Source of the DNA: Nitrospiraceae bacterium
GTDB taxonomy: Bacteria; Nitrospirota; Nitrospiria; Nitrospirales; Nitrospiraceae
Direction of reading: 5' to 3'
DNA length: 49,899 nt
NCBI GenBank assembly: GCA_035715525.1
Contig: DASTLA010000004.1
Coordinates: forward strand, 1 to 49,899
Below are positions 1-42,367 of this stretch, piece after piece. The translations under genes were made by a program, and so were the position numbers. The notes beneath the pieces were generated by a model. The model saw nothing but the letters and a program-made list of their open reading frames with translations. It did not search any database and was not told the origin of the DNA. How positions within the stretch are numbered: the first letter of the stretch is position 1; each line of letters starts with the position of its first letter.

Positions 1-885
1 AGCGGTGAGAGCGGCACGGGGAAAGAATTGATGGCCCGCTATATCCATGCCCGGAGCCCTCGTGCCCATCGCCCGTTCGTTGCCTTGAACTGCGCAGCGC
101 TGCCGGACAGCCTCTTAGAAAGTGAGTTGTTCGGACACGAACGCGGCGCGTTCACGGGCGCCATCCAGCGAAAACTCGGCAAATTCGAAATGGCGCATAC
201 AGGTACGCTGTTTCTCGACGAAATCAGCGAGATGAATCTGGGCCTCCAGGCCAAATTGTTGCGGGTTCTTCAGGAGCGGGAAGTCGATCGGATCGGCGGG
301 CGCGAGCCGGTGCCGGTCAACATCCGGGTTATCGCCACTACCAATCGGTCGCTGTATCACGAAGTCACCCAGGGACGATTCAGAGAAGATCTTTTTTATC
401 GCCTGAACGTGTTCCCGGTCACGGTTCCTCCCTTACGGGAGCGCACGGGGGATATTCCATTGTTGGCGCGACATTTTCTTAGAGCGTCGGCGGTACGGAA
501 CGGGCTGACAGCCCCTTCCCTGTCCGAGCGTGCGATTCGGGATCTTCAAGGTCGCCCTTGGAAGGGCAACGTCCGCGAATTGGAAAATGTTATGGAGCGC
601 GCGATTCTCGTGGCGTCCGGCGGAGTCGTGGATGTGGAGCACCTGTTGGCAGGAGACGGCACGGTCGCGGCGAAAGAGCCGGAAGCGGTCGTGTCGCCCG
701 CCCTTCCGAGCACGCACGGATCCCTGTGGGAAATGGAGCGAGACCTGATCTTCAAGACGCTCGCACGGGTAAAAGAAAATCGAACCCACGCCGCCAAAGA
801 GTTGGGAATCAGCATCCGGACATTGAGAAACAAGCTTCGGGAATATCGGGATATGGGTTATCAGGTGACGGCGGACAAGGCGTAA
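1..885 (+). CDS. sigma-54-dependent Fis-family transcriptional activator (enhancer-binding protein), 5'-truncated by the window edge
   Basis: Frame 1 is open from base 1 ([10 protein letters not shown] Walker A). It has the GAFTGA sigma-54 contact motif ([15 protein letters not shown]), an AAA+ core and a C-terminal Fis-type HTH ([20 protein letters not shown]). It sits directly upstream of flgB. Confidence 0.9.
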
Positions 886-3878: not shown

Positions 3879-4874
3879 ATGCCGAAGCAACTGACCGGTG
3901 AGCAAAAGGCGGCGATCCTGCTGCGCGCGATCGGGGAAGAGGCGGCGGCGGCGGTGATGAAATCGCTCGATCCGCGCGATATCCGCAAGCTGGGCACGTA
4001 TATGCGCGATACAGCCAATATCACCAAAGACGAAGAGGACAGCGTCATCGCCGAGTTCGAAAAGGCCAGCGCATCAGGGGAAGTGGCCTTCGAAGGGAAA
4101 GAATTCATGAAGGCGATTCTCGTCAAGGCTCTTGGCCCGGAAAAGGCCACGCGCATGCTGGATTCCTTGAACACCAAGACCTATCCCGGAATCGATTCGT
4201 TGAAATGGGTCGATGCGCGCACGGTGGTGCAGTTGCTGAGGGTGGAGCATCCGCAAACGATTGCCGTATGCCTGGCGCAGATGGAGGCCGAGCAAGCCGG
4301 CCCTGTGCTCGGCATGCTCCCCGAGAACCTCCGCAACGACGTGGCCCTCCGATTGGCGACCATGCAGGAAGTCCAACCGGAGGTGCTCACGGAGCTCAGC
4401 GAGAGTCTGCAGGAAGTGTTGGCGGCCACCACCGGTTCTTCCAGCATGACGGTCGGCGGCCCTGAACTGATGGCCGAGATCCTGACTCGCATGGACAAGA
4501 ATACCGAGGGCACCATCATGGCCAAGATCACAGAACGAGATCAGGCCTTGGCGGACAGCATCCGCGCCTTGATGTTCGTGTTCGACGACCTGGTGAAGCT
4601 CGAAGACCGCGCCATGCAAGAGGTGATGAAAGAGATCAGCAAGGAAGACCTGCCCATCGCGTTACGAGGCTCCGCGCCGGAAGTCAAAGACAAGTTCCTC
4701 AAGAACATGTCGAGCCGCGCAGCCGAAATGTTGAAGGAAGACATGGAGACCCGCGGGCCGGTCAAAGTCGCGGACGTGGAACGGGCACAGCAGAATATCC
4801 TCAAAGTCTGTCGCAAATTGGAAGAAGAAGGCCGGATTGTCATCGCAGGATCGGGCGGAGAGGAGATGCTGTAA
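3879..4874 (+). CDS. fliG: flagellar motor switch protein FliG
   Basis: 331 aa with EHPQTIAVCLAQM and MFVFDDLVKL motifs and a C-terminal torque-helix region. Confidence 0.93.
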   Translation: MPKQLTGEQKAAILLRAIGEEAAAAVMKSLDPRDIRKLGTYMRDTANITKDEEDSVIAEFEKASASGEVAFEGKEFMKAILVKALGPEKATRMLDSLNTKTYPGIDSLKWVDARTVVQLLRVEHPQTIAVCLAQMEAEQAGPVLGMLPENLRNDVALRLATMQEVQPEVLTELSESLQEVLAATTGSSSMTVGGPELMAEILTRMDKNTEGTIMAKITERDQALADSIRALMFVFDDLVKLEDRAMQEVMKEISKEDLPIALRGSAPEVKDKFLKNMSSRAAEMLKEDMETRGPVKVADVERAQQNILKVCRKLEEEGRIVIAGSGGEEML

Positions 4875-5927
4875 ATGGCTGGAGCGCCGGCCGGATTCCA
4901 GCCCCACCGCGCACTGTCCGGCTTACCGGAAAAAGAGCTGGCGCCTCGCGCCATCCTCGTGGTCGACGACGAGCTTCCGATCCGCGACCTGCTGGCGGAA
5001 ATGTTGCGCGGCGACGGCCACTGCGTCCTGACGGCCAGCAATGCCGAGGAAGCGCTTGCGCGACTCCGCAGCCAGCCCGTCGCCATCCTGATTACCGACG
5101 TGCAGCTGCCCGGCACCGATGGAATTACGGTGCTGCAGCAGGCACTCGACTACGATCCGAGGCTGCTGGGCATCGTCATGACGGGATACGGCAACGTGGA
5201 AACCGCCGTGCGGGCGATGAAAGCCGGCGCCGCGGACTTTTTGGCCAAGCCATTTCAGCAGGATCTCGTGCAGCTGACGGTGACGCGGCTGCTGGAACTC
5301 TATCGGTTGCGGCAGGAGAACACGGTGCTCAAGAACACCCTGATTCGTTCCGGCAATATTCGTTTGCGCACCGTGCCGCTGGCCGACTTCGCGCGGGGCA
5401 ATAGTCCGGTCGGGGAGGACGGCTTGACGGATTTCGAGAGAGGGGCAGCCGAGGGAGAGCGAAAGGTCATGGAACGGATTGCGGTTCAGCGCCAGCGCGA
5501 GCAGGCAATGGTGAATGCCGTGGTCATGAAGTTGGAAGAGACGTGGCGCGGGTTGTCCGATACCGTGGAGGAAGAAGTCGCCGCGCTGTCGTTTATGATC
5601 GCCCAAAAGGTGGTGCGCGACGCCGTCGCGGACAAGCGCGAACTCATCGTCGCGCAGGTGAAGGCGGCCTTGGGACACTTACACGAAAGCGGATTGGTTC
5701 GTATACGGGTTCATCCGTCGGACGTACCCTATTTGGAAGCCGCCCGGACATCGTTGAGCCAAACGCCGCATGGACTCTTGACGGTCAAATTGGAAAGCGA
5801 TGCCGGGATAACCCCCGGCGGGTGCATGGTGCAGACCGCGAGTCTGCTGATCGATGCGACGTTGGACAGCCAGCTGTTTCGCCTAGGAGAAGCGTTGCGA
5901 AAGCGAGAAACCGGTGAAGCTGCGTGA
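4875..5927 (+). CDS. fliH: response-regulator receiver domain fused to flagellar export protein FliH
   Basis: The N-terminal part has the REC hallmarks: VVDDE, ILITDVQLPGTDG, VMTGYG and LAKPF. An NtrC-like LRQENTVLKN linker follows. The C-terminal part is FliH-like (IAQKVVRD...RIRVHPSDV...GGCMVQT...IDATLDSQL). It occupies the fliG-fliI slot and overlaps fliI by 14 nt. Confidence 0.8.
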   Translation: MAGAPAGFQPHRALSGLPEKELAPRAILVVDDELPIRDLLAEMLRGDGHCVLTASNAEEALARLRSQPVAILITDVQLPGTDGITVLQQALDYDPRLLGIVMTGYGNVETAVRAMKAGAADFLAKPFQQDLVQLTVTRLLELYRLRQENTVLKNTLIRSGNIRLRTVPLADFARGNSPVGEDGLTDFERGAAEGERKVMERIAVQRQREQAMVNAVVMKLEETWRGLSDTVEEEVAALSFMIAQKVVRDAVADKRELIVAQVKAALGHLHESGLVRIRVHPSDVPYLEAARTSLSQTPHGLLTVKLESDAGITPGGCMVQTASLLIDATLDSQLFRLGEALRKRETGEAA

Positions 5928-7221
5928 ACGACTCGAGCAGGCCGAGCCGCTGGCGGTCACCGGACGGGTGGCGCAGGCGGTCGGCATCGTCATCGAGGCG
6001 TCGGGTCCATTTACGTCCGTGGGCGAGATCTGCGAAATCACCCGTGAGGACGGACAAGGTACGGTCATGGCCGAGGTGATGGGGTTCCGGGAGGACCGCG
6101 TGCTCCTTATGCCACTCGGCGAAATGCAGGGAATCGGGCCGGGCAGCCGGGTGGTCATGAAAGGCCATGCTGCCTCCGTCGCGGTCGGTCCGCAGCTGCT
6201 GGGACGCATTCTCGATGGACTCGGCCAGCCGCTGGACGGCCTTCCTCCGCTGCGGTCGGAGCTGCGCTATCCCTTGCACGCCGTTCCGCTGAATCCGCTT
6301 CACAGAAGCCGGATCACGCAGCCGATCGATCTCGGCATTCGGTCCGTCAACGCCCTGTTGACCTGCGGGCAGGGACAGAAGATCGGCGTGTTCGCCGGAT
6401 CGGGCGTCGGGAAGAGCGTGTTGTTGGGCATGATCAGCCGTTACACCCGGGCCGATGTGAGAGTCATTGCTCTCGTCGGGGAGCGAGGGCGCGAGGTGAA
6501 GGAGTTTTTGGAGCGCGATATGACGCCTGAAACCCGAGAACGCTCCGTGGTCGTCGTAGCGACATCCGACCAGCCGCCGCTGGTGCGAATCCGCGGAGCG
6601 CTGGTGGCGACGGCAATCGCGGAATATTTTCGGGATTGTGGGAAACAGGTGCTGTTGATGATGGATTCGCTGTCGCGGTTGGCCTATAGCCAACGTGAGG
6701 TCGGTTTGGCGATCGGTGAACCCCCCACGACCAAGGGTTATACCCCGTCGGTGTTTGCGGTCCTTCCAAAATTGCTCGAACGCGTCGGGACGGCGCAGAG
6801 CGGAGGGGCGATTACCGGACTCTATACCGTCCTCGTCGACGGGGATGATCTGAACGATCCAGTGGCCGACGCCGTCCGCTCGATTCTGGACGGCCATATC
6901 GTGCTCTCGAGGGAGCTTGCGGCCCGCAACCATTATCCGGCAATCGACATTCTGCAGAGCACGAGTCGCGTCATGCGGGATGTCGTGTCGCCGGCGCATT
7001 ATGCCGCCGCACGCTTGGTGGTGGAACGGAGTGCCCTGTATCGACGCTCCGAAGACCTGATCACGCTCGGAGCCTATAAACCGGGAACGAGCAAGGAACT
7101 CGACAAAGCCGTCTCCGCTCATGACGACATCACCCGCTTCCTGCGTCAGGAAATCCAACAGCCGATTGCCTATGCCAAATCGGTCGAAGAGCTGCTGGCC
7201 TTGGCTCAGAAAATACAATGA
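5914..7221 (+). CDS. fliI: flagellum-specific ATP synthase FliI
   Basis: Walker A AGSGVGKS, Walker B LLMMDSLSR, F1/T3SS ATPase family features. GTG start. Confidence 0.95.
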   Translation: MKLRERLEQAEPLAVTGRVAQAVGIVIEASGPFTSVGEICEITREDGQGTVMAEVMGFREDRVLLMPLGEMQGIGPGSRVVMKGHAASVAVGPQLLGRILDGLGQPLDGLPPLRSELRYPLHAVPLNPLHRSRITQPIDLGIRSVNALLTCGQGQKIGVFAGSGVGKSVLLGMISRYTRADVRVIALVGERGREVKEFLERDMTPETRERSVVVVATSDQPPLVRIRGALVATAIAEYFRDCGKQVLLMMDSLSRLAYSQREVGLAIGEPPTTKGYTPSVFAVLPKLLERVGTAQSGGAITGLYTVLVDGDDLNDPVADAVRSILDGHIVLSRELAARNHYPAIDILQSTSRVMRDVVSPAHYAAARLVVERSALYRRSEDLITLGAYKPGTSKELDKAVSAHDDITRFLRQEIQQPIAYAKSVEELLALAQKIQ

Positions 7222-7643
7222 AATTAGCGGTGCTACGGGCCTATGCCCTGCAGCTGGAGCAGGCGGCAAAATTGGAGCTGGCCGAAGTGGCGCAGGCGCT
7301 GAACGAGACGGACGTGCGGCTGGCTGCGCTGGACCGGCAGGCCGACCTCGGGGCGGATCGGTACGTGGCGCAAGTGCAAGGCGGCACGACGGTCGGCGAT
7401 CTCTATGCGCGACTGGACGAAATGGAGACGATGATCGCGGAAAAGCGGGCGGCAGAGCAGGCTCGAGCTTCTCTCCAAGAGCGGTGGATCTCGAAGAGAG
7501 ATGAGGTTCTCGACGCGTCGCGCTACCGCAAGAAGCTGGACATTCTATATGAGCGGGGCATACGGGAGCAGCGCCGCCGATCCGAGCAAGCGGACCAACG
7601 GTTGATCGACGATCGCACGTGGCGCCGAACGGGAGTGAGCTGA
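7218..7643 (+). CDS. fliJ: flagellar export chaperone-like coiled-coil protein FliJ
   Basis: 141-aa predicted coiled-coil protein with an ATGA overlap with the fliI stop. The call rests on position after fliI, because sequence conservation in this family is weak. Confidence 0.65.
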   Translation: MKLAVLRAYALQLEQAAKLELAEVAQALNETDVRLAALDRQADLGADRYVAQVQGGTTVGDLYARLDEMETMIAEKRAAEQARASLQERWISKRDEVLDASRYRKKLDILYERGIREQRRRSEQADQRLIDDRTWRRTGVS

Positions 7644-8338
7644 TCGTGAGCAGGAGCATCGAGCAAGGCGTGCCGGCGCCATGGGCCTGGCTGGCCTTGC
7701 TCATTCTATGGATCTCGATGCTTGGGGGAGGGTCCGTGGCCGAGTCGGCTGTGACCGAGGCTGCAGAAAAAGACCTTTTGCCTGTCTCCAACGGTCCATC
7801 CAGTTCGGAAGATGCAGGTCCTGCCGCCAAGCAAGGGAAAGCGCATGGCGGGAAGGACATTCACGGCAGCGAGGGATCCGCATCGATTCAAGGGCCTGCC
7901 ACGTCGGTGCCACGAGAAATCCTCGACATGCTGGAACGACGCAGGCGTATGCTCGACAGACGAGAAGCTGCGCTGCGAGGTGCGGAAACGCACTTACTGG
8001 AACTCAAGGCGGAGATCGAGCAGATCCTGACCCGGTTTGAAAAAACCGCCGAGGCGCAGAAAAGACGTCACGAAGCGGCAGCCAAAGCCGAGGCGGATCG
8101 CAAAGCCAGAGAGGGTCGGGATGCCTCGGAACACCGCAACGTGCACCAATCCCAGCTGGCCAAAATCTACGAAGCGATGCCTCCGGAAGAAGCGGCCGTC
8201 CGCTTGGAGCGGATGCCGGAGCGAAAGGCCATCGAGGTGCTTCGCTTGCTCAAAGGTAAATCGGCCGGCGCCATTCTGGCCGTTATCAGGCCGGAGCGAG
8301 CCGCCCATCTCACCGAGCAGTTGTTGAACGTTCCCTGA
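7619..8338 (+). CDS. MotE/YlxF-like flagellar protein with a C-terminal MgtE_N-type domain
   Basis: N-terminal TM or signal segment, a charged coiled coil, and a C-terminal block (IYEAMPPEEAAVRLERMPERKAIEVLRLLKGKSAGAIL). It holds the same slot as ylxF between fliJ and fliK in fla-type operons. The true start may be GTG 7646. Confidence 0.6.
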   Translation: MAPNGSELIVSRSIEQGVPAPWAWLALLILWISMLGGGSVAESAVTEAAEKDLLPVSNGPSSSEDAGPAAKQGKAHGGKDIHGSEGSASIQGPATSVPREILDMLERRRRMLDRREAALRGAETHLLELKAEIEQILTRFEKTAEAQKRRHEAAAKAEADRKAREGRDASEHRNVHQSQLAKIYEAMPPEEAAVRLERMPERKAIEVLRLLKGKSAGAILAVIRPERAAHLTEQLLNVP

Positions 8339-12491: not shown

Positions 12492-13463
12492 ATGGACAAG
12501 ATACTGTCGCAGGAGGAAATCGATGCGCTGATGAGCGGCGTGGTGTCGGGTGAAGTCGATACCACGACCAAGGAAGAAGACGATCCGTCCGGTATCAAAT
12601 CCTACAGCCTGACCAATCAGGAACGGATCATCCGTGGGCGCATGCCCACGATGGAGATGATCAACGATCGCTTCACCCGTCAGCAGTCCGTCTCGTGGAC
12701 CTCTCTCCTTCACGAAAAGGTCGAATTCAGCGTCGTCGGGACGCAGATCATGAAGTTCGGCGATTTCGTCAAAAAGGTGCCCCTCCCGTCGTCCTTCAAC
12801 GTATTCATGATGGAACCGCTGCGTGGTAACGGCCTGTACGTGATGGATGCCTCGCTGGTGTATTTGATCGTGGATTACTTTTTCGGCGGTCGGGTGCAAA
12901 CACATGTGAAGCCCGAAGGACGGGAATTCACCTCCATTCAACTGCGGTTGATCAAGAAGGTGGTGCGGCAGGCCCTGGCGGATTTGGAAAAGGCCTGGCA
13001 AGCGGTCATGCAATTGAAGATCGGGTATTCGCGCTCCGAAAGCAACCCGCAATTCGCCATGGTGGTGACCACGACGGAAATCGTCGTCGTGGTGACTCTG
13101 CAGGTCATGATCGGCGAGGCGTCCCGCGACATGTTTATCGCCTATCCCTATTCCATGCTGGAGCCCATCAAAGAAAAACTCTATTCCGGTCTGTTCGCCG
13201 ACAACGTCGAGCAGGACAGCAGTTGGGGGAGCCGTTTCAAGGAATCCCTCCAGGACTGTCTTGTAACGATGACCGTCCAGTTAGGCACCGCCCGCATCAG
13301 CGTTCAGGATCTTCTCAACTTCATGCCCGGCGACGTGCTCATGCTCGACCAACATCCCGGGGACCCGCTGCTGTGCTTGGTGGAAGGCGACGCGAAATTT
13401 CACGGGCAGCCTGGCGTGTTCAAAGGCAATCACGCCTGTCGTGTCACCAACGTGCTGAATTAG
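12492..13463 (+). CDS. fliM: flagellar motor switch protein FliM
   Basis: N-terminal CheY-P binding motif LSQEEIDALM, a FliM middle domain and a C-terminal SpoA-like domain. Confidence 0.93.
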   Translation: MDKILSQEEIDALMSGVVSGEVDTTTKEEDDPSGIKSYSLTNQERIIRGRMPTMEMINDRFTRQQSVSWTSLLHEKVEFSVVGTQIMKFGDFVKKVPLPSSFNVFMMEPLRGNGLYVMDASLVYLIVDYFFGGRVQTHVKPEGREFTSIQLRLIKKVVRQALADLEKAWQAVMQLKIGYSRSESNPQFAMVVTTTEIVVVVTLQVMIGEASRDMFIAYPYSMLEPIKEKLYSGLFADNVEQDSSWGSRFKESLQDCLVTMTVQLGTARISVQDLLNFMPGDVLMLDQHPGDPLLCLVEGDAKFHGQPGVFKGNHACRVTNVLN

Positions 13464-13487: not shown

Positions 13488-13862
13488 ATGGCCAATGCTG
13501 ATTCAACGGGCGCATCGGGGGTCGGAAGCGGCATGGACGCCGGGACGGACCCCCAGCCCACGTCCTTTCCGACGATGGAAAACACCGCGACGGTGCCCGC
13601 CAATAAAAATATCGATTTCGTCCTGGACATTCCGCTGCAGGTGACCGTTCAGATCGGATCCACCAAGATGTTGATCCGGGAGTTGCTCCAATTGGGGCAG
13701 GGCTCCGTCATCGAACTGAACAAGCTCGCGGGCGAGCCGATGGAGGTGTTGGTCAACAACAAGCTCGTCGCGCGAGGCGAGGTCGTAGTCGTGAACGAGA
13801 AATTCGGCATCCGTCTGACGGACGTCGTGAGCACGAATCAGCGTATTCAACAACTGGGCTGA
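13488..13862 (+). CDS. fliN: flagellar motor switch protein FliN
   Basis: SpoA domain (VQIGSTKMLIRELLQLGQGSVIELNKLAGEPMEVLVNNKLVARGEVVVVNEKFGIRLTDV). Confidence 0.92.
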   Translation: MANADSTGASGVGSGMDAGTDPQPTSFPTMENTATVPANKNIDFVLDIPLQVTVQIGSTKMLIRELLQLGQGSVIELNKLAGEPMEVLVNNKLVARGEVVVVNEKFGIRLTDVVSTNQRIQQLG

Positions 13863-22410: not shown

Positions 22411-23379
22411 ATGTCCCAGGGCATTCCTGTGCCCATCTGGATCGATCATTCCGAACGCGCAGGTTTCATGGATAGGATGATCTCACGTACCTCCCGCCGG
22501 TCCCTGTTCACGAATTCCGCTGTCCGATCGGATGCGTCGCATCATCATGCCTGGTCGCCAAAGGACTTTCCAGGGACGTCGTCGATCCTGCCGTTGGGGT
22601 CCGGCCTCATGGGGATGATCGTCTCCTTCATGGTGGTAGCGGGAGGATTGTATTGGATCAACGCAACGGGGTTGTTGACGGCATCGGCGCTGCGATCGGT
22701 TCCGATGGCTCTATGGGGGGCCGCTGTTCTTGCCATAGGAGCACTATCGGGGCTCATCGTCTGGGGAATGCGATCGCCCAGGACCCATCCGATCGGTTGG
22801 TTTGTGGGAGGGCAATCGAAGCTGGCGATCCCAACCACCTACGATTCCGTGACCGGGCTGCCCACCTCGCGCCTGTTCATGTCCATGCTCAATAACGCAC
22901 TCGTCAGGGCCGATAGAGAAGGGCGTCACGTGGCAATCCTCCTGGTAGAGTTGGAGCATTTTACCTTGACGGGCGGATCTCAAGAACCGAGCAACCCCAA
23001 CCTCATCTATAGGGTGCAGGCGGCACGGGTGAAAAGCGCACTGCGAAGCACCGACACGGTGGCGCGGTTGGCCGAGCGAACATTCGTCGTTCTGCTGGAT
23101 AAGATCACCGCCGACGAGGCGGTTGGTATCGCGACCAAAATGCAGGCGACGGTGTCATTGCCCTTTCTCGTAGAAGGACAGGAGGTTTTCCTTACCAGCC
23201 GTATCGGGATCAGCGTCTCTGGCCCGGGAGCAATGGACGGAGCAACCTTGCTCCGGACGGCCGAGGAAGCGGTCGAGAAGGCGAGGGCGGAGGGCTTTGT
23301 CATATACGGACTCAACGTCGACATGGCGAATGATTCATCTCTTACTCCCGTCACAAAGTCCACCCCCCAGGCCGCGTGA
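22411..23379 (+). CDS. membrane protein with a degenerate GGDEF domain (A-site lost, RxxD I-site retained)
   Basis: Hydrophobic N-terminal half with 2-3 TM segments. The GGDEF-fold block begins YDSVTGLPTSRLF. The GG(D/E)EF position reads AERTF and the DxDxFK position reads ELEHFT. RSTD sits exactly 5 residues upstream, as a canonical I-site does. Confidence 0.75.
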   Translation: MSQGIPVPIWIDHSERAGFMDRMISRTSRRSLFTNSAVRSDASHHHAWSPKDFPGTSSILPLGSGLMGMIVSFMVVAGGLYWINATGLLTASALRSVPMALWGAAVLAIGALSGLIVWGMRSPRTHPIGWFVGGQSKLAIPTTYDSVTGLPTSRLFMSMLNNALVRADREGRHVAILLVELEHFTLTGGSQEPSNPNLIYRVQAARVKSALRSTDTVARLAERTFVVLLDKITADEAVGIATKMQATVSLPFLVEGQEVFLTSRIGISVSGPGAMDGATLLRTAEEAVEKARAEGFVIYGLNVDMANDSSLTPVTKSTPQAA

Positions 23380-24464: not shown

Positions 24465-25256
24465 ATGATTCGTGCCATGTGGACCGCCGCCACGGGAATG
24501 ACGGCCCAGCAAATCAACGTCGACACGATCGCGCATAACCTGGCCAACGTCAATACGAACGCGTTCAAGCGGAGTCGGGCTGAATTCGCCGACCTCCTCT
24601 ACCAAATTCAACGGCTGCCCGGGACCAACGCGTCCAACGTCGGCGTATTCCCCACAGGGGTACAGATCGGCGCCGGCGTCCGCCCCATCACGGTAGCCAA
24701 GGAATGGATTCAGGGAAACGTGCGTCAAACCAACAACGACCTCGATCTAGCCATCGACGGACCGGGGTTTTTCCAGGTTGCCAGGCCGGACGGCACGATC
24801 ATGTATACCCGGAACGGCTCATTCAAACGCGACAATGTGGGGAACTTGGTAACGGGCGACGGGGATCAACTGACGCCGGTGATTACCGTTCCCTCGGGCG
24901 CCTTGAAGATCGACATCGGCCAGGACGGGACCGTTTCCGTGCTGCTTCCCGGCGTAACGCAAGCCTCGCAGGTCGGCCAGATCCAACTTGTCCGTTTCGA
25001 CAATCCCTCCGGGCTCGTCTCGATGGGCAACAATCTGTTTCTCGACAGCTTCGCCTCCGGCCCGCCGCTGCAGGGAACCGGCGGCTTCTCGACGGGATTC
25101 GGCATGCTGCAACAGGGATTCTTGGAAAGCTCCAACGTCAACTTGGCAGAAGAAATGGTCAACATGATCATCGCGCAACGGAGCTATGAGATCAATTCCA
25201 AGACGATTCAGGCGTCGGATGAAATGATGCAAATCGCGAACAATCTTCGCCGATAA
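24465..25256 (+). CDS. flgG: flagellar distal rod protein FlgG
   Basis: MIRAMWTAATGMTAQQINVDTIAHNLANVNTNAFKR and SNVNLAEEMVNMIIAQRSYEINSKTIQASDEMMQ. Confidence 0.95.
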   Translation: MIRAMWTAATGMTAQQINVDTIAHNLANVNTNAFKRSRAEFADLLYQIQRLPGTNASNVGVFPTGVQIGAGVRPITVAKEWIQGNVRQTNNDLDLAIDGPGFFQVARPDGTIMYTRNGSFKRDNVGNLVTGDGDQLTPVITVPSGALKIDIGQDGTVSVLLPGVTQASQVGQIQLVRFDNPSGLVSMGNNLFLDSFASGPPLQGTGGFSTGFGMLQQGFLESSNVNLAEEMVNMIIAQRSYEINSKTIQASDEMMQIANNLRR

Positions 25257-25283
25257 CCGCGATCGACGCTCGACGGGGGATCC

Positions 25284-26084
25284 GTGAGACCAACTAGTGT
25301 GATGTTTCTCGCCGCGCTGCTCTCTCTGCAGTTCGCATCGGCAGCCGGAGCGGAAGTAGGGCGGCGCGCCAGTCGCGCAGAGATCCAGCCCGTGCACGAC
25401 TTCATGCCGAGCGCGGGCGCCAGGGCCCTTCGAGCCCGTGGCGGACGACTGCTCTATCCGGAGCGGATCCGGGACGCCATCCAGACTTACGTACGAAAGG
25501 AACTGGCGGGCCGGGCGTTGGATTGTCAGGTGACGGTCGGTGAACCACAGGAGCCGGTCGTGGTGCCGGCCGGGACGCTGGACATCAAGGTCAGCGGAGG
25601 CGGCGCAGAAGATCCGTTGGGACGACGCACGTTCCTCGTCCATGTGGCCGTCAATGGTCGCTTGGTTCGGTCTATCGAAGCGACCGCCGATGTGGCAGCA
25701 GTGCTGGAAGTCGTCGTGCCGGTCCGGCTGATCAAAGCGGACGAACAGATCGAACCCGACGACGTGACGACCGACCGTATGGTCGTATTCGATCTCAAAC
25801 AGGCGGTCGCAACCGATCCGGCAGAGGTCGTGGGGAAAGCCGCCATGCGCCCGCTGGCCCCGCAAAGCCCGATTCGACTGACGGCGGTGCGGCGACCATT
25901 TGCAGTGCACAAGGGTGACCGGGTCACCATCGAAGCGCGACAGGGTGGGCTTGCCATTCAGACGGTGGGCGTCACGAAGTCTCACGGCGAACTCGGGCAG
26001 ACCATCACCGTTTCCAACGTGGATTCCGGAAAAGAATTGCGGGCAAAAATCGTCGGACCGGGGGTCGTGCGTGTCGATTTCTAA
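25284..26084 (+). CDS. flgA: P-ring assembly chaperone FlgA
   Basis: Signal peptide, then a C-terminal FlgA/SAF block (VHKGDRVTIEARQGGLAIQTVGVTKSHGELGQTITVSNVDSGKELRAKIVGPGVVRV). GTG start. Confidence 0.85.
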   Translation: MRPTSVMFLAALLSLQFASAAGAEVGRRASRAEIQPVHDFMPSAGARALRARGGRLLYPERIRDAIQTYVRKELAGRALDCQVTVGEPQEPVVVPAGTLDIKVSGGGAEDPLGRRTFLVHVAVNGRLVRSIEATADVAAVLEVVVPVRLIKADEQIEPDDVTTDRMVVFDLKQAVATDPAEVVGKAAMRPLAPQSPIRLTAVRRPFAVHKGDRVTIEARQGGLAIQTVGVTKSHGELGQTITVSNVDSGKELRAKIVGPGVVRVDF

Positions 26085-26787
26085 CCGGTTAAGAACGACG
26101 GCTGCCTTGTGTGCCGGCCTCATGACGCTCGCAACTGTGCTGTCCATGGCGGCGTGCTCGGCCTCCCCCAGCACAAAGCAACAACGGGTGGAGGTCGCAA
26201 AATTGCCGCCTCCCAAGACAACGGGATCGCTCTGGCAGGAAGAAAACGGTCGAGCCTACCTTTATGAAGACCTGCGGGCAATGCGAGTGGGAGACATCAT
26301 CACGATTCTGATCGCGGAGAAGCACAAAGGGTCAAAGAGCGCCGATACGAGCGCCGAAAAAGACTCCAGCATCACGAATAGCCTGGAAGGCGGCGCCTTA
26401 GGCTACCTCGGCATCCCGGGGCTGCGATTGGGTGCCGAGGCAACGCGCGGATTGGGCATCGATGCCAGTGCAAAGAACAAATTCGGCGGTAAGGGAGCCA
26501 CCAACCGCGAGGACACTCTGACCGGCACCATTTCGGCGATCGTCACCGAGGTCCTGCCCAACGGCGATTTGCGGGTCGAGGGGAGACGCGAAGTGACGGT
26601 GAATTCGGAGCGGCAGATCATGACGATCGCTGGAATCGTGCGTCGGGTCGACGTGAACACGAAAAACACCGTGCAATCCACGGCGATTGCGGATGCGAAG
26701 ATCGAATATTCCGGGCTCGGCGTCGTCGACGACGTTCAGCGGCCGGGATGGTTTGTCAGGATACTTGATTGGATTTATCCCTTCTAA
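26071..26787 (+). CDS. flgH: flagellar L-ring lipoprotein FlgH
   Basis: GTG 26071 yields a lipoprotein signal (RLRTTAALCAGLMTLATVLSMAAC). The FlgH core (GSLWQEE...RAMRVGDIITI...) follows. The track start at 25900 lies deep inside flgA. Confidence 0.9.
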   Translation: MSISNRLRTTAALCAGLMTLATVLSMAACSASPSTKQQRVEVAKLPPPKTTGSLWQEENGRAYLYEDLRAMRVGDIITILIAEKHKGSKSADTSAEKDSSITNSLEGGALGYLGIPGLRLGAEATRGLGIDASAKNKFGGKGATNREDTLTGTISAIVTEVLPNGDLRVEGRREVTVNSERQIMTIAGIVRRVDVNTKNTVQSTAIADAKIEYSGLGVVDDVQRPGWFVRILDWIYPF

Positions 26788-31794: not shown

Positions 31795-32052
31795 ATGCTT
31801 GTACTGACGAGGCGCCGCGGAGAAGGTGTCACGATCGGGCCCAATGTCCGTATCGTGGTTCTGGGCATCAAGGGCGGGCAGGTGCGGCTTGGGATCGAGG
31901 CGCCGTCCAATGTCGAAGTGCATCGAGACGAAGTGCATGCCAGAATTCAGGAAGAGAACCGTATGGCGGCAGGAACCGGAGCAATCCCCTTGGAGGCGTT
32001 TCGCCAACTCTCCCAACGAAGCGGCGTCGGGGATCCTAGGAGGCGGCGGTGA
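31795..32052 (+). CDS. csrA: carbon storage regulator CsrA
   Basis: MLVLTRRRGEGVTIGPNVRIVVLGIKGGQVRLGIEAPSNVEVHRDEV. AAGGAAGG RBS upstream. Confidence 0.93.
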   Translation: MLVLTRRRGEGVTIGPNVRIVVLGIKGGQVRLGIEAPSNVEVHRDEVHARIQEENRMAAGTGAIPLEAFRQLSQRSGVGDPRRRR

Positions 32053-32525
32053 AGTGTAGGACCACGCGATTCGGGACGTTGGACATTGCGGAAGAGGCGT
32101 TGCTGACCTTTCCTTCCGGCATACTCGGGTTCGCCGAATGGACCCGGTACGTGCTGCTCGACCATGACACGGAAGCACCGATCAAATGGCTGCAATGCGT
32201 CGAAAATCCTGAATTGGCCTTTGTCGTGCTGGATCCCGTCCTTTTCAAGCCCGATTACCAAGTGGCTCTGGGGGAGGACGCCCTCGCAGAGTTGGAAAGT
32301 CGCGAAGGCGACGACCTGTCCGTGGTCATCATTCTGACCATCCCCTCGGAGGACCCGACCCGTGTGACGGCGAACCTTCGCGGGCCGCTCGTCATGAACC
32401 ACCGCACTCGCCGGTGTAAGCAGTTGGTGTTGTCCGACGACATTCCCACGCGCCATCCGCTTTTCGACACGGCCGTTTCGCGTCCGGGCACACCCGCCAC
32501 ATCGCTTCAGGCCACCGCCTGTTGA
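32049..32525 (+). CDS. fliW: flagellar assembly factor FliW (CsrA antagonist)
   Basis: LTFPSGILGFAEWTRYVLL...WLQCVENPELAFVVLDP. GTGA overlap with the csrA stop. Confidence 0.9.
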   Translation: MKCRTTRFGTLDIAEEALLTFPSGILGFAEWTRYVLLDHDTEAPIKWLQCVENPELAFVVLDPVLFKPDYQVALGEDALAELESREGDDLSVVIILTIPSEDPTRVTANLRGPLVMNHRTRRCKQLVLSDDIPTRHPLFDTAVSRPGTPATSLQATAC

Positions 32526-32556
32526 TCGATCTGTATCCAGCTTAAAGAGAGGAATG

Positions 32557-32572
32557 AGCCGGCCTTCCGGCT
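32557..32572. terminator. hairpin between the convergent fliW and hybrid kinase genes (candidate bidirectional terminator)
   Basis: AGCCGG-cctt-CCGGCT forms a 6-bp GC-rich stem in the 55-nt convergent spacer. Confidence 0.4.
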
Positions 32573-32580
32573 TGAGAGGG

Positions 32581-35412
<2,832 letters not shown>

Positions 35413-35418: not shown

Positions 35419-36675
35419 TTACTGTCCCGAAGCCGGCTCCAAGTATGCCGCGACGTTCACCTGCTCGGTCTTCGGGTCGAGCGCGCGGAGAATCGTCCGT
35501 GCCGGCTGAGATCCGCACTCCGCCGAGAGATCGAGCCCGATCGACTCACTGAAGATCTGACCTTTCGCGTCGGTGATGATCCGAATCTTTGGCTTGAGGC
35601 GATGTTCATGGTTCAGTCCGGTGACCAAGGCGGATTCTCCCGTATTGAGCTTGATGAGACTCCCGATCGGATAAACGCCCAGCGCTTTGATGGCCACTTC
35701 GACGACGGCTTTATCGAACCGGCCCTTTTCCCCCAGCACGAACAGTTGGCGGATGGCATCGTGGGGCAACAGCGCTGGCTTGCCGTTCCGCGACGTCACC
35801 ATGCCGTCGTAGGTGTCGACCAGTCCGACGATCTGTACGAGCGGAGACAAGCTCGCGCCGGTGAGCTTGTTGGGGTACCCGCTGCCGTTGAAATGCTCAT
35901 GATGCTCCGCAATGATGTGCCGGACGAGTTCCGGCACGTCCGCCGACTCGGCCATGACCGTCAGTCCAAGTTGGGGATGTTGCTGCATCAGGGCCTTTTC
36001 CTGTGGCAGCAAGATCCCCGATTTGCGGTACAGGTTTCGCGGCAGGCGGGTGTAGCCGATATCATGAAGCATCGCCCCCATTCCCAAGAACTCGCGGTCG
36101 GATTCTTGCAGCCCCTGTTCGTTCGCAACGATCAGCGACAAGACGCACACGTCGATGCCGTGGCTCGCTAGGCTCCGGTCGAACCGTCGCATCTTCTGCA
36201 GGCAAAACTGCATCAACATCGATTCCTGGTGCAGCAGGATTTGGTCCACCACGCGTGCAACCACAGAGCGAACCGACACGAGATTAGGAGCATGGCCGGC
36301 GTCCAGGTCGGCGAAGATGCGTTCCATGGCGGCCGTGGCTTCCCGGTAGGTTGTTCGCGCTTCCGCCATGATCTTCTGGGCGTCAGGCGAAGTCGCAGTC
36401 GGCTCGTCCGTAGAACCGGCTTCGGAAGATCCGGCTGGTTCCTCCGTCGGCCGCGCATCGTCCCCAGCGGCGGCCGCTGCCGGTATGTCGATTCCTTGGT
36501 CGGTATCGATTGTGACTTCTTGGATACCGGCCCCACGCATTTGGAGAACATCGTCCTGGTCCGCGATGAGGCGTTTGTGGAACAAGAAGGGGGTCCGGTA
36601 CCACGGCTGATCCATTGCCACGACGAACATGCCGGGCTTGAGCTCGTCAATGGAGATGCGCTTTGTGCTGGCCAT
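35419..36675 (-). CDS. HD-GYP domain c-di-GMP phosphodiesterase with an N-terminal DUF3391-like domain
   Basis: MLHDIGY (HD) and HHEHFNGSGYP (GYP). The N-terminus reads MASTKRISIDELKPGMFVV. The track start at 36801 is probably an over-extension. Confidence 0.88.
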   Translation of the reverse strand: MASTKRISIDELKPGMFVVAMDQPWYRTPFLFHKRLIADQDDVLQMRGAGIQEVTIDTDQGIDIPAAAAAGDDARPTEEPAGSSEAGSTDEPTATSPDAQKIMAEARTTYREATAAMERIFADLDAGHAPNLVSVRSVVARVVDQILLHQESMLMQFCLQKMRRFDRSLASHGIDVCVLSLIVANEQGLQESDREFLGMGAMLHDIGYTRLPRNLYRKSGILLPQEKALMQQHPQLGLTVMAESADVPELVRHIIAEHHEHFNGSGYPNKLTGASLSPLVQIVGLVDTYDGMVTSRNGKPALLPHDAIRQLFVLGEKGRFDKAVVEVAIKALGVYPIGSLIKLNTGESALVTGLNHEHRLKPKIRIITDAKGQIFSESIGLDLSAECGSQPARTILRALDPKTEQVNVAAYLEPASGQ

Positions 36676-36797
36676 AATTCCTGTGTAGGCGAAAGGTAAG
36701 CAGCGAACCTCCAGGAGTTGCACCATACAGGTCCGCATACTTGATATCGGTTGCTGGCAGATTTGGCTTGAATCCGCACCGTTGAAGGGGGGCAGGC

Positions 36798-36825
36798 TCA
36801 AGGTTTTGTCGATGGGCTCCGATAG
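36798..36825 (+). promoter_or_regulatory. candidate sigma-28-type promoter for the PilZ (YcgR-like) gene
   Basis: TCAAGGTT-N12-TCCGATAG. The -35 box matches 6 of 8 positions, the -10 core is CCGATA, and the spacing equals that of the flgM promoter. Confidence 0.4.
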
Positions 36826-36872
36826 CGTTCATCAGGACACGTTCGTGCACATTGTTGCCGGACCGAGGAGTG

Positions 36873-37592
36873 ATGGGGGAATCGAGTCTTCCATGCCAGT
36901 CTGCCGGCTCGTTTCTGAGTGTCGGGCTGTCGCTGCAAATCAACTTTCAACCGAGTGATTCGCGAATCCAGCACGGTTCGTCGTTGTTGGGATGGCGGGA
37001 AGGAAGCTGGTTGGTCTGCGAGTGGCCGTTCCAATTGGGTCAGCCGGTGGAATGCAGTCCGGGATCGACCTGCCTGATCCGGTACGTGCATCAAGGAAAA
37101 ATGATCGGGTTCCGCAGTGCGGTCATTTCAGCCCATGAGTCTCCATTTCCGTTTCTTCTGCTGAGCTACCCAGCCCAGAGAGAGGAAATGCCGCTCCGCC
37201 GCCATTCGCGTGTTGCCATCAACGAACCAGTCTTGGTCAGAACGATCAGCGGTGCCAATACACGGCGTCCGGAACTGCCGGATCGCATCGGCGGACTCTT
37301 GCGCGATCTCAGCGCGGAGGGTTGTTGCTTATCAGTACAACGGCCGTTACAGGATTTTTTCCCTGGGATGCTCGTTCGGCTGGAATTTGAGGTGATGGGG
37401 GTCGGTCACATCAGCAGTCTAGGGGGTATCGTCCGTAACATCTCGCCGGCGGGGGCAGGCACGGAAGTAGGACTGGAGTTCCGCTTCGACGGAAAGGAAG
37501 CCATCGAATACCGGGGGTGGGGTGCATCGGTACAAAAAGCCCTCGAACAATGGACCAGCCGAGCTCTCGACTCCCCTCCGCAAGAACGATGA
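36873..37592 (+). CDS. PilZ-domain c-di-GMP receptor, YcgR-like (putative flagellar brake)
   Basis: RxxxR (LRRHSRV) and DxSxxG (DLSAEG) c-di-GMP binding motifs in the C-terminal half. An N-terminal beta-rich domain of about 100 aa resembles YcgR. The start is uncertain: TTG 36852 or ATG 36873. Confidence 0.8.
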   Translation: MGESSLPCQSAGSFLSVGLSLQINFQPSDSRIQHGSSLLGWREGSWLVCEWPFQLGQPVECSPGSTCLIRYVHQGKMIGFRSAVISAHESPFPFLLLSYPAQREEMPLRRHSRVAINEPVLVRTISGANTRRPELPDRIGGLLRDLSAEGCCLSVQRPLQDFFPGMLVRLEFEVMGVGHISSLGGIVRNISPAGAGTEVGLEFRFDGKEAIEYRGWGASVQKALEQWTSRALDSPPQER

Positions 37593-37645: not shown

Positions 37646-37759
37646 TGATGACGCCCGCAGGCCCATGGATTGGTCGAAATCGCAGCACTTCGGCCGCAGC
37701 TCGGCTGCTGCGAATCGGCACACATCTTGCCAGTTCCGATCGCGAGGAGCTCACCGCAG

Positions 37760-38236
37760 ATGCCGATCAGTGCGAACGTGGCCATAGACCGAGGCGTCGT
37801 CATTCACCATCCGGAACTGGTGAACCTCTACGGCTGCCGCATTGGCACCGACACCAAGATCGGCGCCTTCGTCGAGATTCAGAAGAACGCAACGATCGGC
37901 AGTCGATGCAAGATTTCCTCGCACAGCTTCATCTGTGAAGGCGTGACCATCGAAGACGATGTCTTTGTCGGCCACGGTGTGGTCTTCATCAACGACCGAT
38001 ATCCGAGAGCAACAATCAATGGGCGTCTGCAATCCGAAGCGGATTGGACCGTGATGCCGATCCTCGTGAAGCGGGGAGCGTCCATCGGAAGCGGGGTCAT
38101 CGTCATGTGCGGCGTCACGATCGGAGAGGGAGCGCTCGTAGGAGCCGGAGCGGTCGTGACCCGCGACGTGCCTGCCGGTGCCACGGTCCTCGGCCTGCCT
38201 GCCCGCGTGACCGCCATGAAACGGAGGAGCGCTTAA
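37760..38236 (+). CDS. hexapeptide-repeat (left-handed beta-helix) sugar N-acetyltransferase, WbpD/WlbB-like
   Basis: Repeated [LIV]-G-x4 hexapeptides (IGTDTKIGAFVEIQKNATIGSRCKISSHSFI...IGSGVIVMCGVTIGEGALVGAGAVV). GAGGAG RBS 9 nt upstream of ATG 37760. Confidence 0.85.
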   Translation: MPISANVAIDRGVVIHHPELVNLYGCRIGTDTKIGAFVEIQKNATIGSRCKISSHSFICEGVTIEDDVFVGHGVVFINDRYPRATINGRLQSEADWTVMPILVKRGASIGSGVIVMCGVTIGEGALVGAGAVVTRDVPAGATVLGLPARVTAMKRRSA

Positions 38237-38237
38237 G

Positions 38238-39275
38238 ATGATCGGTGTCGGTGTCATCGGCTTCGGCTATTGGGGCCCCAATTTAGTGCGGAACTTCCAT
38301 GAAATGCCGGATGCCAGAGTCTTGGCGGTGAGCGATCTCAGGATGGAACGCCTCAGCCTCGCGGCCTCCCGCTATCCGGGGATTACGGTTACGACGCACG
38401 TACAGGAATTGCTTCGCTCTCCTGCGGTCGACGCGGTCCTCATCGCCACGCCGGTCTCGACGCATTACGAACTCGCGCTGCAGGCACTGCGGGCCGGGAA
38501 GCATGTGCTGGTGGAAAAGCCGCTGACGACGACTTCCGAGCAGGCCCTGAGACTGTCGGAAGAAGCCGACCGGCGCGGTCTGACGCTGATGGTGGATCAC
38601 ACCTTCGTCTACACGGGCAGTGTGCGAGCGATGAAGGAGCTGTTGGCCAAGGGCGACATCGGGGATCTTTATTACTACGATTCGGTCCGGGTGAACCTCG
38701 GATTGTTCCAGCACGACGTCAATGTGCTGTGGGACTTAGCCGTCCATGACCTCTCCATCATGGATCATCTTCTGCCCTGCAGGCCTCGGGCAGTGTGCGC
38801 AACCGGCATGCGGCATTTCCCCAAGGAGCCGGAGAATATCGCGTACCTCACGCTGTTCTACGATTCCTCGTTGATTGCGCACATCCATGTGAACTGGCTC
38901 GCGCCGGTGAAGGTGAGACGGACGCTCATCGGCGGCAGCAGAAAAATGATCATGTATGACGATGTGGAGCCCAGCGAAAAAGTGAAGGTCTACGACAAGG
39001 GCGTCATGACAGAAACGCAGCAGGCCGGGAGCGAGGCTATGTACAAGATGCTGGTGGGCTATCGCGCCGGGGACATGTGGGCGCCCCAGCTCGATACCGC
39101 CGAAGCCCTCAAAAGAGAAGCACGACATTTCCTCGATTGCATTACGGACCGACAAATCCCTCTGACCGGTGGCGAAGCGGGGACGCGTGTGGTCCAAATT
39201 CTCGAGGCCGCGTCGCGGTCCATGGCGGAACGCGGGCGCTTGATCGAGGTTGAAAGCATGAGGCTGGCGGCATGA
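38238..39275 (+). CDS. Gfo/Idh/MocA-family NAD-dependent sugar-nucleotide dehydrogenase (3-dehydrogenase-like)
   Basis: N-terminal Rossmann motif GVIGFGYWGPNLVRNF and the EKPL motif (HVLVEKPLTTT). It is flanked by an acetyltransferase and a DegT aminotransferase. Confidence 0.85.
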   Translation: MIGVGVIGFGYWGPNLVRNFHEMPDARVLAVSDLRMERLSLAASRYPGITVTTHVQELLRSPAVDAVLIATPVSTHYELALQALRAGKHVLVEKPLTTTSEQALRLSEEADRRGLTLMVDHTFVYTGSVRAMKELLAKGDIGDLYYYDSVRVNLGLFQHDVNVLWDLAVHDLSIMDHLLPCRPRAVCATGMRHFPKEPENIAYLTLFYDSSLIAHIHVNWLAPVKVRRTLIGGSRKMIMYDDVEPSEKVKVYDKGVMTETQQAGSEAMYKMLVGYRAGDMWAPQLDTAEALKREARHFLDCITDRQIPLTGGEAGTRVVQILEAASRSMAERGRLIEVESMRLAA

Positions 39276-41391: not shown

Positions 41392-42367
41392 CGCGAGGGT
41401 TTTGATCACCGGTGGGGCCGGGCTGATCGGCTCCCACATCGCGGATCTCCTCATTCGAGAGGGAGCCGGCGACATCGTCATTCTGGACAATTTGTCTCGG
41501 GGGCGACGAGAGAATCTTGCCTGGGCGTTGCAGCATGGAGCGGTTACGCTCATCGAAGGCGACGTCAGGGATCGCGCGACGCTGCGGCATGCCATGCGGG
41601 GCATCGATATTGTGTTTCACCAGGCGGCGATCCGTATCACGCAATGTGCCAAGGAGCCGCGGCTCGCGTTGGAAGTGCTCGCCGACGGCACGTTCAACGT
41701 GTTGGAAGCGGCCGTCGAAACCGGCGTTAAGAGGATCGTCGCAGCCTCGTCGGCGTCGATCTATGGGATGGCCGACGATTTTCCCACCTCTGAACGTCAT
41801 CACCCCTACAACAATCGGACGCTGTATGGCGCCGCCAAGGCGTTCAATGAGGGATTGCTGCGCAGCTTCAATGACATGTATGGCCTGTCGTATGTGGCGC
41901 TTCGCTACTTCAACGTCTACGGGCCGCGCATGGATGTATACGGAGCTTATACCGAAGTGCTCATCCGCTGGATGGAACGGATTGCACAGGGTCTGCCGCC
42001 GCTCATCCTTGGCGACGGCACCCAGACGATGGATTTCGTCTATGTCGAGGATATCGCGCGTGCCAATGTTTTGGCCATGCAGTCCGACGTGACGGATGAG
42101 GTCTTCAATGTCGCGACCGGAATCGAGACCAGCCTCAATGAGCTCGCGCGGCAGCTGCTGACGGTGATGGGCTCGGCGCTGCAGCCGGAGTATGGCCCGC
42201 CGCGTGCCGTCAATCCGGTCCCTCGCCGTTGGGCTTCGACCGAAAAGGCAGACAAGCTACTGGGCTTCAAAGCCCAAACGACGGTGGAGGAAGGGTTACG
42301 GCGGCTCGTCGGTTGGTGGCGAAGCACGTCGGCGCCGGTGCTTGACCAATCGAAGGAGGCCGCATGA
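41378..42367 (+). CDS. NAD-dependent epimerase/dehydratase (extended SDR)
   Basis: [10 protein letters not shown] glycine motif and a YxxxK context (YGAAKAFNE). Confidence 0.85.

Follow-up and report, generated by a model that had tools for sequence, protein, structure and literature searches.

A receiver of the NtrC type added to an otherwise complete FliH in the flagellar gene cluster of Nitrospiraceae

Known two-component control of flagella acts on transcription, as in FlgSR, FlrBC, and FleSR, or on rotation, through CheY. A 49,899-nt stretch of DNA from a Nitrospiraceae bacterium (contig DASTLA010000004.1; hereafter, the window) raises the question of whether such control could also reach the type III secretion system of the flagellum (fT3SS) at its export ATPase. 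Between fliG and fliI, it carries an open reading frame (ORF), here called REC-fliH, whose product joins a response-regulator receiver domain (REC) to FliH, the regulator of the ATPase FliI. A sequence-only reading of the window had described the product as a CheY-like receiver standing in place of the N-terminal segment by which FliH docks onto FliN and had proposed that phosphorylation controls FliH–FliI assembly or docking. Our analysis keeps the fusion and revises both the type of the receiver and its relation to the docking segment.

The ORF reading and Pfam agreed on a single in-frame fusion of 350 aa. Pfam identified two domains, both far above their cutoffs: Response_reg (PF00072; residues 27–132, E 8.3e-24, 84.3 bits, cutoff 30.2) and FliH (PF02108; residues 209–335, E 9.7e-21, 74.5 bits, cutoff 24.1). 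The FliH assignment of the C-terminal part was further borne out by NCBIfam FliH models (including PRK05687), which cover residues 188–341, and by a phmmer sequence search of the Protein Data Bank (PDB), which matched Salmonella FliH (5b0o, E 0.013). In Salmonella FliH, the C-terminal domain is the FliI-binding part. On the receiver side, every motif quoted in the earlier reading is present, and the catalytic quintet is complete: VVDDE holds D31 and D32, ILITDVQLPGTDG contains the phosphoacceptor D75, VMTGYG supplies T103, and LAKPF supplies K125, followed by P126.

We examined the architecture in an AlphaFold (AF2) model based on a 24-sequence alignment, with a mean predicted local distance difference test score (pLDDT) of 72.6. 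Residues 1–19 fall below a pLDDT of 50, and the receiver (residues 26–128, pLDDT ∼90) shows the (beta-alpha)5 pattern. Its alpha-5 runs on as a single helix to residue 158, followed by a disordered stretch (residues 160–178, pLDDT <50), a very long helix (residues 186–251), and a compact C-terminal domain (residues 256–345, pLDDT ∼80–87). In Foldseek searches, the receiver reached a TM-score of 0.9 to many receivers; with the whole model as query, the top 50 matches were receivers only, with none for the FliH half.

The same architecture recurs in many genomes. A database search returned 491 homologs, the best 120 of which all carry PF00072 plus PF02108 at a length of ∼349 aa, with identity down to 44%; one homolog (P0001) is 99% identical and likewise 350 aa long. 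More than 140 homologs are collinear at 341–370 aa. For conservation analysis, we aligned 146 full-length members, including distant ones retrieved when the FliH half by itself was run in an exhaustive HMMER search. Because all 146 have the same architecture, REC-FliH is not an artefact. A sequencing or assembly error, or a split ORF, is ruled out by the continuous frame, by the 99%-identical homolog of the same length, and by the 146 collinear homologs; we looked for an error splitting the ORF within positions 5300–5550, where the sequence-only reading had seen the risk, and found neither a stop codon nor a frameshift.

REC-fliH is also closely joined to both of its neighbors. In the window, its ATG follows directly on the stop codon of fliG, the Shine–Dalgarno (SD)-like run GGAGAGGAG lies 9 nt upstream of that ATG, and the 3′ end overlaps the GTG of fliI by the 14 nt (5914–5927) described earlier, an overlap that is kept in related loci. 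When the window was compared with 12 related loci, an ATG directly after the preceding in-frame stop was found in 10 of the 13 genes, and the remaining 3 had a GTG start in a TAGTG context. Nearly all related loci have a purine-rich GGAG/GAGG run 5′ of the start. In 13/13 related loci, REC-fliH is syntenic and translationally coupled with fliG and fliI, and the order fliF-fliG-RECfliH-fliI is kept in 13/13 where the contig allows; fliF is also among the neighbors of REC-fliH in the window. Most related loci have flgB, flgC, fliE, and a sigma-54 activator gene, here called RR2, upstream, and fliJ was detected downstream in four.

What the receiver is attached to proved to be a whole FliH. With hhalign, columns 4–222 of a 247-column profile of stand-alone FliH aligned onto residues 148–350 (probability 100, E 3e-44), the N-terminal part of this alignment coming from a permissive setting (mact 0.05). 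Because the stand-alone profile aligns nearly end to end with these residues, the receiver is an addition to a complete FliH. The proposal that it replaces the docking segment is rejected in favor of addition, to which the MAFFT alignment as well as hhalign points. At the junction, hhalign sets ENTVLK, the end of the linker, over the s.ViK consensus of the canonical FliH N terminus. The corresponding motif, s-x-[VI]-[IL]-K, occurs in the first 25 residues of 58/126 stand-alone FliH proteins, compared with ∼9 in shuffled sequences and 5 in an internal control window. Some 10 residues after it, stand-alone FliH proteins have a hydrophobic/acidic stretch (e.g., VKTYALQDV, VETVALEEF, or IETWEALDL), whose counterpart in REC-FliH reads ...ENTVLKNTLIRSGNIRLRTVPLADF...; MAFFT aligns this motif (e.g., VKTYALQDV or VQAYALQAL) with residues 164–172. 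The L169-x-D171-F172 segment found there is predicted to be disordered and sits just before G190xxxG194 and the coiled coil. Residues 1–18 of Salmonella FliH are disordered and bind the FliM–FliN heterodimer via W7, W10, and L15, and a coiled coil comes next (PMC4443714); GxxxG repeats followed by a helical dimerization segment are a hallmark of FliH (PMC2674601). On this comparison, residues 159–185 are likely a retained docking peptide, a candidate for binding FliM/FliN (and FlhA).

Canonical FliH (Salmonella FliH2–FliI, PDB 5B0O; FliH/SctL) and REC-FliH thus have in common the position between fliG and fliI with overlapping frames, the C-terminal domain, the long coiled coil, and the GxxxG element, and REC-FliH has in addition a predicted disordered hydrophobic/acidic segment before the coiled coil that may correspond to the canonical one. 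They differ in that REC-FliH has ∼150 extra N-terminal residues (receiver plus helical linker), that its docking-type segment lies within the chain instead of at a free N terminus, and that it has L-x-D-F where Salmonella has the Trp7/Trp10 clamp. No second FliH-like ORF turned up in the scanned parts of the 50-kb flagellar region, and as far as sequence can tell, REC-fliH is the fliH of this flagellar cluster, made as one fusion polypeptide.

The receiver itself did not turn out to be CheY-like in the narrow sense. By profile and structure it groups with the receivers of NtrC and NtrX. Its best NCBIfam matches were NtrX (6e-31), AtoC, and NtrC, whereas CheY_Halo reached 1.4e-13. The best Foldseek match was the NtrX receiver 4d6y (42% identity, root-mean-square deviation 1.2), and further matches were the receivers of NtrC1, DctD, HupR, and FleR (including 1ny5, 1l5y, and 1zy2). 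The NtrC-style linker LRQENTVLKN, which the sequence-only reading had pointed out, is present, and the NtrX, AtoC, and GlrR profiles align over residues 24–159, that is, through this linker. Receivers of the NtrC family (NtrX, NtrC1, DctD, HupR, and FleR) have the same fold and all of the catalytic residues, and in them, as in REC-FliH, alpha-5 continues into an L-R-x-E-N-x-x-L-K/R linker helix. The output differs, being FliH, a structural component of the secretion ATPase, and not a transcription module. Pfam gave PF00072 and PF02108 only, with neither the AAA+ sigma-54 interaction domain (PF00158) nor HTH_8; because it lacks these, REC-FliH is not a member of the NtrC family, and the kinship is one of input-module ancestry.

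Among Nitrospira paralogs, the closest over residues 27–156 is RR1, a full REC-AAA+-HTH sigma-54 regulator (42–47%, tblastn), whose linker (...ALDVYKLKQENHLLRK; in a longer form, ...ALDVYKLKQENHLLRKAVR...) resembles that of the FliH receiver. On a 132-residue alignment of REC plus linker, the mean identity of the FliH receiver was 39.9% to RR1, 36.0% to NtrC-like receivers of other phyla, and 28.5% to RR2; over the receiver core, tblastn gave 36–40% for RR2. Derivation of the receiver from the adjacent RR2 is rejected on the ∼28% in the REC-plus-linker alignment, with RR1, encoded further upstream, closer (40–46%) and sharing the linker. In a neighbor-joining tree computed without support values, the FliH receivers form one clade, sister to RR1. 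We conclude from these comparisons that receiver and linker are of the NtrC type and not of the CheY type. Like CheY at the FliM/FliN switch, REC-FliH would be a phosphoreceiver acting at the C-ring, and the T103/F122 pair is present. Unlike CheY, it has two domains, matches the NtrX profile better than the CheY profile, and clusters with the receivers of sigma-54 regulators, and its output would be expected in export or assembly and not in the switching of rotation. Because the FliM of the window carries the canonical CheY-binding N terminus MDKILSQEEIDALM (with LSQEEIDALM), CheY can be expected to control switching in the ordinary way beside it.

Conservation of the receiver centers on its chemistry. 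In the 146-sequence alignment, the acidic pair [D/E]31-D32, D75, Thr/Ser103, and K125 are each kept in 145/146, so that the phosphochemistry which the earlier reading had called complete is so in all but one member, and the aromatic switch residue F122 is kept in 140/146; retention of D75, K125, T/S103, and F122 at these levels fits selection on phosphotransfer. With a column conservation of 0.70, the linker helix is as conserved as the receiver (0.68) and the C-terminal domain (0.66), which argues that it is a functional coupler and not a spacer. Within residues 159–185, the most conserved positions are L169 (139/146), D171, F172 (132/146), and G175; G190 and G194 are invariant (146/146).

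Among the matches listed in a one-genome-per-species scan, full-length ones were found only in records titled Nitrospira or Nitrospiraceae (loci L001–L013; the record of L013 is titled 'Nitrosospira sp.'), and the remaining loci were receiver-only matches. All homologs that carry a name are from Nitrospira, Nitrospiraceae, or Nitrospirota. More distant REC-FliH proteins (357–370 aa) are from Nitrospiraceae or Nitrospirota where named, and the same holds for all of the REC-plus-FliH proteins among the best 150 of 5780 FliH relatives. Neither the species-scan matches listed nor these best 150 contained an independent fusion outside Nitrospirales. As far as the searches reach, REC-FliH appears confined to Nitrospirales, and on this sampling, the fusion is a lineage-wide character of Nitrospiraceae, not a one-off. 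We rejected the PF02108-only proteins among close Nitrospira matches as true stand-alone FliH, since they start inside the receiver (MTGHG...), are frameshifted, or come from short contigs. Among stand-alone FliH proteins, the nearest (200–227 aa, one of them named 'Nitrospirales bacterium') are 34–39% identical over the FliH half, and their genes sit in the same fliG–fliI slot of relatives. Because these relatives, with FliI 68–70% identical to that of the window, carry stand-alone FliH in that slot, the fusion arose within Nitrospirales. Two such proteins, P0141 and P0147, are listed in Table 1; the receiver may have been lost secondarily here, or this may be an intermediate type. After 25 unrelated residues, P0141 shows 'IVK...(14 residues)...FQLQSV', a spacing as in the REC-FliH linker.

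Full-text searches found no paper on a receiver–FliH fusion, in line with the earlier statement that no such protein has been characterized. Database names are another matter. One NCBI name is 'putative flagellar biosynthesis protein FliH with response regulator receiver domain'; most records read 'response regulator', and others read 'DNA-binding response OmpR family regulator', 'FixJ family...', 'ActR/RegA family...', 'F0F1 ATP synthase subunit delta', or 'FliH/SctL family protein'. The fusion is, therefore, already visible in some database names yet uncharacterized in the literature. Because the same protein is so variously named, automated surveys could score Nitrospira clusters as lacking fliH.

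We next consider where a phosphoryl group might come from. The sequence-only reading had correctly noted a sigma-54 activator in the window (RR2, truncated at the edge of the window) and a hybrid kinase with an HPt domain, and it had named the latter as a possible donor. A better candidate is encoded in a conserved module, RR1–TPR protein (740 aa)–kinase (429 aa; L016:4005-5294)–RR2 (L016:239-5294; L015:5977-11043), that belongs just upstream of the window; because the window starts inside RR2, the kinase gene would fall just outside it. This kinase is cytoplasmic, with coiled-coil/PAS, HisKA, and HATPase regions, and as a candidate donor we prefer it to the hybrid kinase with HPt, which is encoded 27 kb away. 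RR1, the PAS kinase, and RR2 occur together in ∼14 Nitrospira-type loci, in four of which the TPR gene was detectable. Full-length RR2 orthologs were read in L001–L013; RR2-flgB...fliG-RECfliH was found in ten loci, and the 3′ end of the kinase gene is visible before RR2 in eight of these. In L016 and L003, the whole run RR1-TPR-kinase-RR2-flgB...fliG-RECfliH stands on one contig, so that one PAS kinase is linked to three receivers, those of RR1, RR2, and REC-FliH. That the FliH receiver is sister to that of RR1 makes a shared kinase plausible. The window also encodes FlhF, FlhG, and FliA, as in polar flagellates, and together with these the module layout resembles FlrBC/FleSR, flagellum-associated two-component systems of polar flagellates (PMC7064773). 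In FlgSR, FlrBC, and FleSR, as here, a cytoplasmic PAS-HisKA-HATPase kinase stands beside sigma-54 regulators heading the flagellar cluster; in the known systems, however, the receivers are solely on transcription factors, whereas here a related extra receiver lies in the fT3SS ATPase complex.

The reading we favor, at a probability of about 0.55, is that docking or assembly of FliH–FliI at the export gate is controlled by phosphorylation through D75 and the linked PAS kinase. REC-FliH would still be the dimeric stalk by which the FliI–FliJ ATPase is tethered at FlhA and at the C-ring (FliM/FliN). A histidine kinase, for which the FleS/FlrB-like cytoplasmic PAS kinase of the upstream module is the best candidate, would phosphorylate D75. 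NtrC1/DctD-type receivers dimerize via alpha4-beta5-alpha5 plus the linker helix, and the dimer arrangement changes on phosphorylation. In REC-FliH, the receiver and linker dimer would lie against the docking segment (residues 159–185) and be rearranged in this way. Because FliH is dimeric and the segment starts at the end of the linker, such a rearrangement would change how the segment is exposed or what geometry it takes and would shift how well FliH2–FliI docks or assembles at FliM/FliN and FlhA. Export would then be gated posttranslationally by a signal of the same kind as the one driving flagellar transcription from sigma-54. Phosphorylation, the identity of the donor kinase, and the effect on docking and export are what we infer here.

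Several observations weigh against this reading. The correspondence of L-x-D-F with W7/W10/L15 of Salmonella is at the level of a motif only, and the sister placement with RR1 comes from a tree without support values. Close relatives (L083 and L084, with the FliI identities given above) manage with stand-alone FliH. Finally, P0144 (L081:4001-5107; MFO0775876.1, from a Nitrospiraceae metagenome-assembled genome, on a 3.16-Mb contig) has all five catalytic positions replaced (VEGVV vs. DDDTK). Its REC match is weak (38 bits), but the fold and the fliG–fliI slot are kept, so a receiver in this position can serve without phosphorylation; it is the sole pseudoreceiver case in the 146 sequences.

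P0144 speaks most directly for a receiver that is structural only, an extra dimerization or spacer module that would fit the FliH stalk to the Nitrospira motor and in which phosphorylation would be irrelevant. This would also suit the dimerization of NtrC1/DctD-type receivers, which are among the structural matches (1ny5, 1l5y, and 1zy2), and of FliH itself. Pseudoreceivers normally lose their catalytic residues, however, and retention of the acidic pair, D75, T/S103, and K125-P126 in 145/146 sequences at 42–99% identity is hard to explain without phosphoryl chemistry; we regard a purely structural role as doubtful. Another possibility is that the signal runs in reverse, with the FliH receiver taking up phosphate from the flagellar kinase, as acceptor or sink, or offering that kinase a docking site. 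Kinase flux to both sigma-54 regulators would then depend on whether FliH–FliI is free or assembled, and assembly would be a checkpoint for transcription. The linkage of one cytoplasmic PAS kinase to RR1, RR2, and REC-FliH in a conserved supercluster, the kinase plausibly shared with RR1, and the FlhF, FlhG, and FliA genes of the window are all in keeping with this, and how FlrB/FleS sense the fT3SS is an open question, the answer lying 'possibly through an unidentified factor' (PMC7064773; PMC3760246). The proposal is purely inferential, and the very high conservation of the linker points to intramolecular coupling, which a simple sink would not need. We think it unlikely as the main role, although it is compatible with phosphorylation-controlled docking and does not exclude it.

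The receiver might instead behave as a tethered CheY that, once phosphorylated, binds the FliM N-terminal peptide or FliN and so provides a second C-ring anchor or a competitor of CheY. The CheY-binding N terminus of FliM would offer a target, F122 and T103 are conserved, and there is a generic structural similarity to the CheY–FliM complex 4iga. Against this stand the NtrC/NtrX-like profile scores, structure, and RR1 sister placement described above, and with a FliH-type docking segment apparently still present, no replacement anchor would be needed, which leaves the idea improbable. Least credible to us is that two products are made, with an internal start near 5480–5560 giving the working stand-alone FliH and the fusion being a minor or nonfunctional read-through or a mis-assembly. 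The window does have in-frame GTG, TTG, and ATG codons with SD-like sequences at residues 132, 151, 184, and 199. However, none of these candidate starts is conserved: across the window and the 12 related loci, we found no conserved in-frame start with an SD sequence in residues 130–215, and 5/12 related loci have no in-frame SD-preceded start at all in that interval. Moreover, the protein upstream of any such start is strongly conserved, the database matches without REC are truncated or frameshifted gene calls, and the fusion occurs in 146 independent assemblies. Exclusive use of an internal start is, on these sequence comparisons, unlikely.

If phosphorylation does control docking, REC-FliH would represent a third route of two-component control, acting directly on the flagellar type III export ATPase complex; alternatively, the receiver would let the flagellar kinase sense assembly, and assembly sensing by FlrB/FleS is itself an open question (PMC7064773). 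A broader suggestion, which we put forward tentatively, is that the flagellar two-component system has in REC-FliH a third output, or a feedback node, embedded in the machine. One FleS/FlrB-like kinase would then activate the sigma-54 genes and also phosphorylate the FliH stalk, coupling transcription and export at the protein level, or in the reverse direction, the kinase would read fT3SS assembly through FliH. Were the latter true, there would be a physical explanation of the way in which such kinases sense the export apparatus.

A different input on the same ATPase has a precedent: Trampari et al. 2015 reportedly described the binding of c-di-GMP to FliI/HrcN. There, too, the signal acts on the FliH–FliI–FliJ module and not on transcription; that input is a small ligand on the ATPase, whereas in REC-FliH the stator/regulator subunit would be phosphorylated covalently on a domain fused to it. 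Both building blocks of REC-FliH are ordinary, and it is their combination that is uncharacterized. A two-component input on FliH would be unexpected to a flagellar-export specialist, and the locus offers a handle on how signaling and export are coupled, although Nitrospira-type organisms are hard to manipulate. Nitrospira, across which the fusion is conserved, are the main nitrite oxidizers and comammox bacteria in soils and waters and in wastewater plants; the fusion is therefore relevant to the way they change from motile to attached life and back.

Table 1. Coordinates of REC-fliH, its parts, and the genes discussed (window positions unless a locus is named; conservation is column conservation in the 146-sequence alignment)
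Feature	Position	Strand	Details
RR2, 3′ part of sigma-54 activator (REC-AAA+-HTH_8)	1–885	+	Pfam Sigma54_activat, AAA_lid_14, HTH_8; frame open from nt 1
fliG	3879–4874	+	Pfam FliG_N, FliG_M, FliG_C; TAA stop (4872–4874) abuts REC-fliH ATG
Translational-coupling junction	4857–4877	+	SD-like GGAGAGGAG 4857–4865, fliG TAA 4872–4874, REC-fliH ATG 4875–4877; read from sequence
REC-fliH ORF	4875–5927	+	350 aa, uninterrupted, between fliG and fliI
Variable N-terminal tail, residues 1–25	4875–4949	+	Conservation 0.34; pLDDT 36–40, predicted disordered
REC domain, residues 26–128	4950–5258	+	Key residues D31, D32, D75 (codon 5097–5099), T103, F122, K125, P126
Extended alpha-5/NtrC-type linker helix, residues 129–158 (...RLLELYRLRQENTVLKNTLIRS)	5259–5348	+	Modeled helix; NCBIfam profile alignment
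FliH N-terminal-type segment, residues 159–185	5349–5429	+	L169-x-D171-F172-x-x-G175; LADF at nt 5379–5390; conservation 0.54
GxxxG element and long coiled-coil helix, residues 186–251	5430–5627	+	G190xxxG194 at nt 5442–5456; coiled-coil conservation 0.62
FliH C-terminal globular domain, residues 252–345	5628–5909	+	PF02108, 5b0o match, pLDDT 80–87
fliI, export ATPase	5914–7221	+	Pfam ATP-synt_ab, T3SS_ATPase_C; GTG start at 5914
fliJ	7218–7643	+	
fliM	12492–13463	+	FliM and FliMN_C domains (fliM and fliN together); N terminus MDKILSQEEIDALM
fliN	13488–13862	+	With fliM, expected C-ring docking partners of FliH
Hybrid histidine kinase	32581–35412	−	Pfam PAS, HisKA, HATPase, two REC stretches, HPt; phosphodonor only by earlier proposal
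Stand-alone FliH P0141	L083:4001–4684		227 aa; fliG–fliI slot
Stand-alone FliH P0147	L084:4001–4642		213 aa; fliG–fliI slot

Elsewhere in the window, three long ORFs have no Pfam match (24819–26216, 31947–32603, and 47525–49495, all on the minus strand). That at 24819–26216 overlaps the plus-strand ORFs 24465–25256, 25284–26084, and 25900–26787 in the flgG–flgI interval; it is a high-GC antisense ORF, probably spurious. The flagellar region also contains a second-messenger/phosphorelay set consisting of a GGDEF protein directly after fliA (22411–23379, +), the hybrid kinase of Table 1, a DUF3391+HD_5 protein of the HD-GYP type (35419–36801, −), and a YcgR-like PilZNR+PilZ protein (36852–37592, +). 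On the 3′ side of the flagellar genes lie nine sugar-nucleotide modification genes (37670–46919, +), which may act in glycosylation of flagellin or of the surface; they encode three DegT-type aminotransferases, three epimerase/dehydratases, and one each of a hexapeptide acyltransferase, a GFO/IDH/MocA oxidoreductase, and a formyltransferase. Finally, between fliJ and fliK (7619–8338, +), a protein of 239 aa is encoded whose N-terminal segment is hydrophobic and whose match to MgtE_N is weak (E 1e-5); it is kept in place in all of the related loci that reach past fliI/fliJ.

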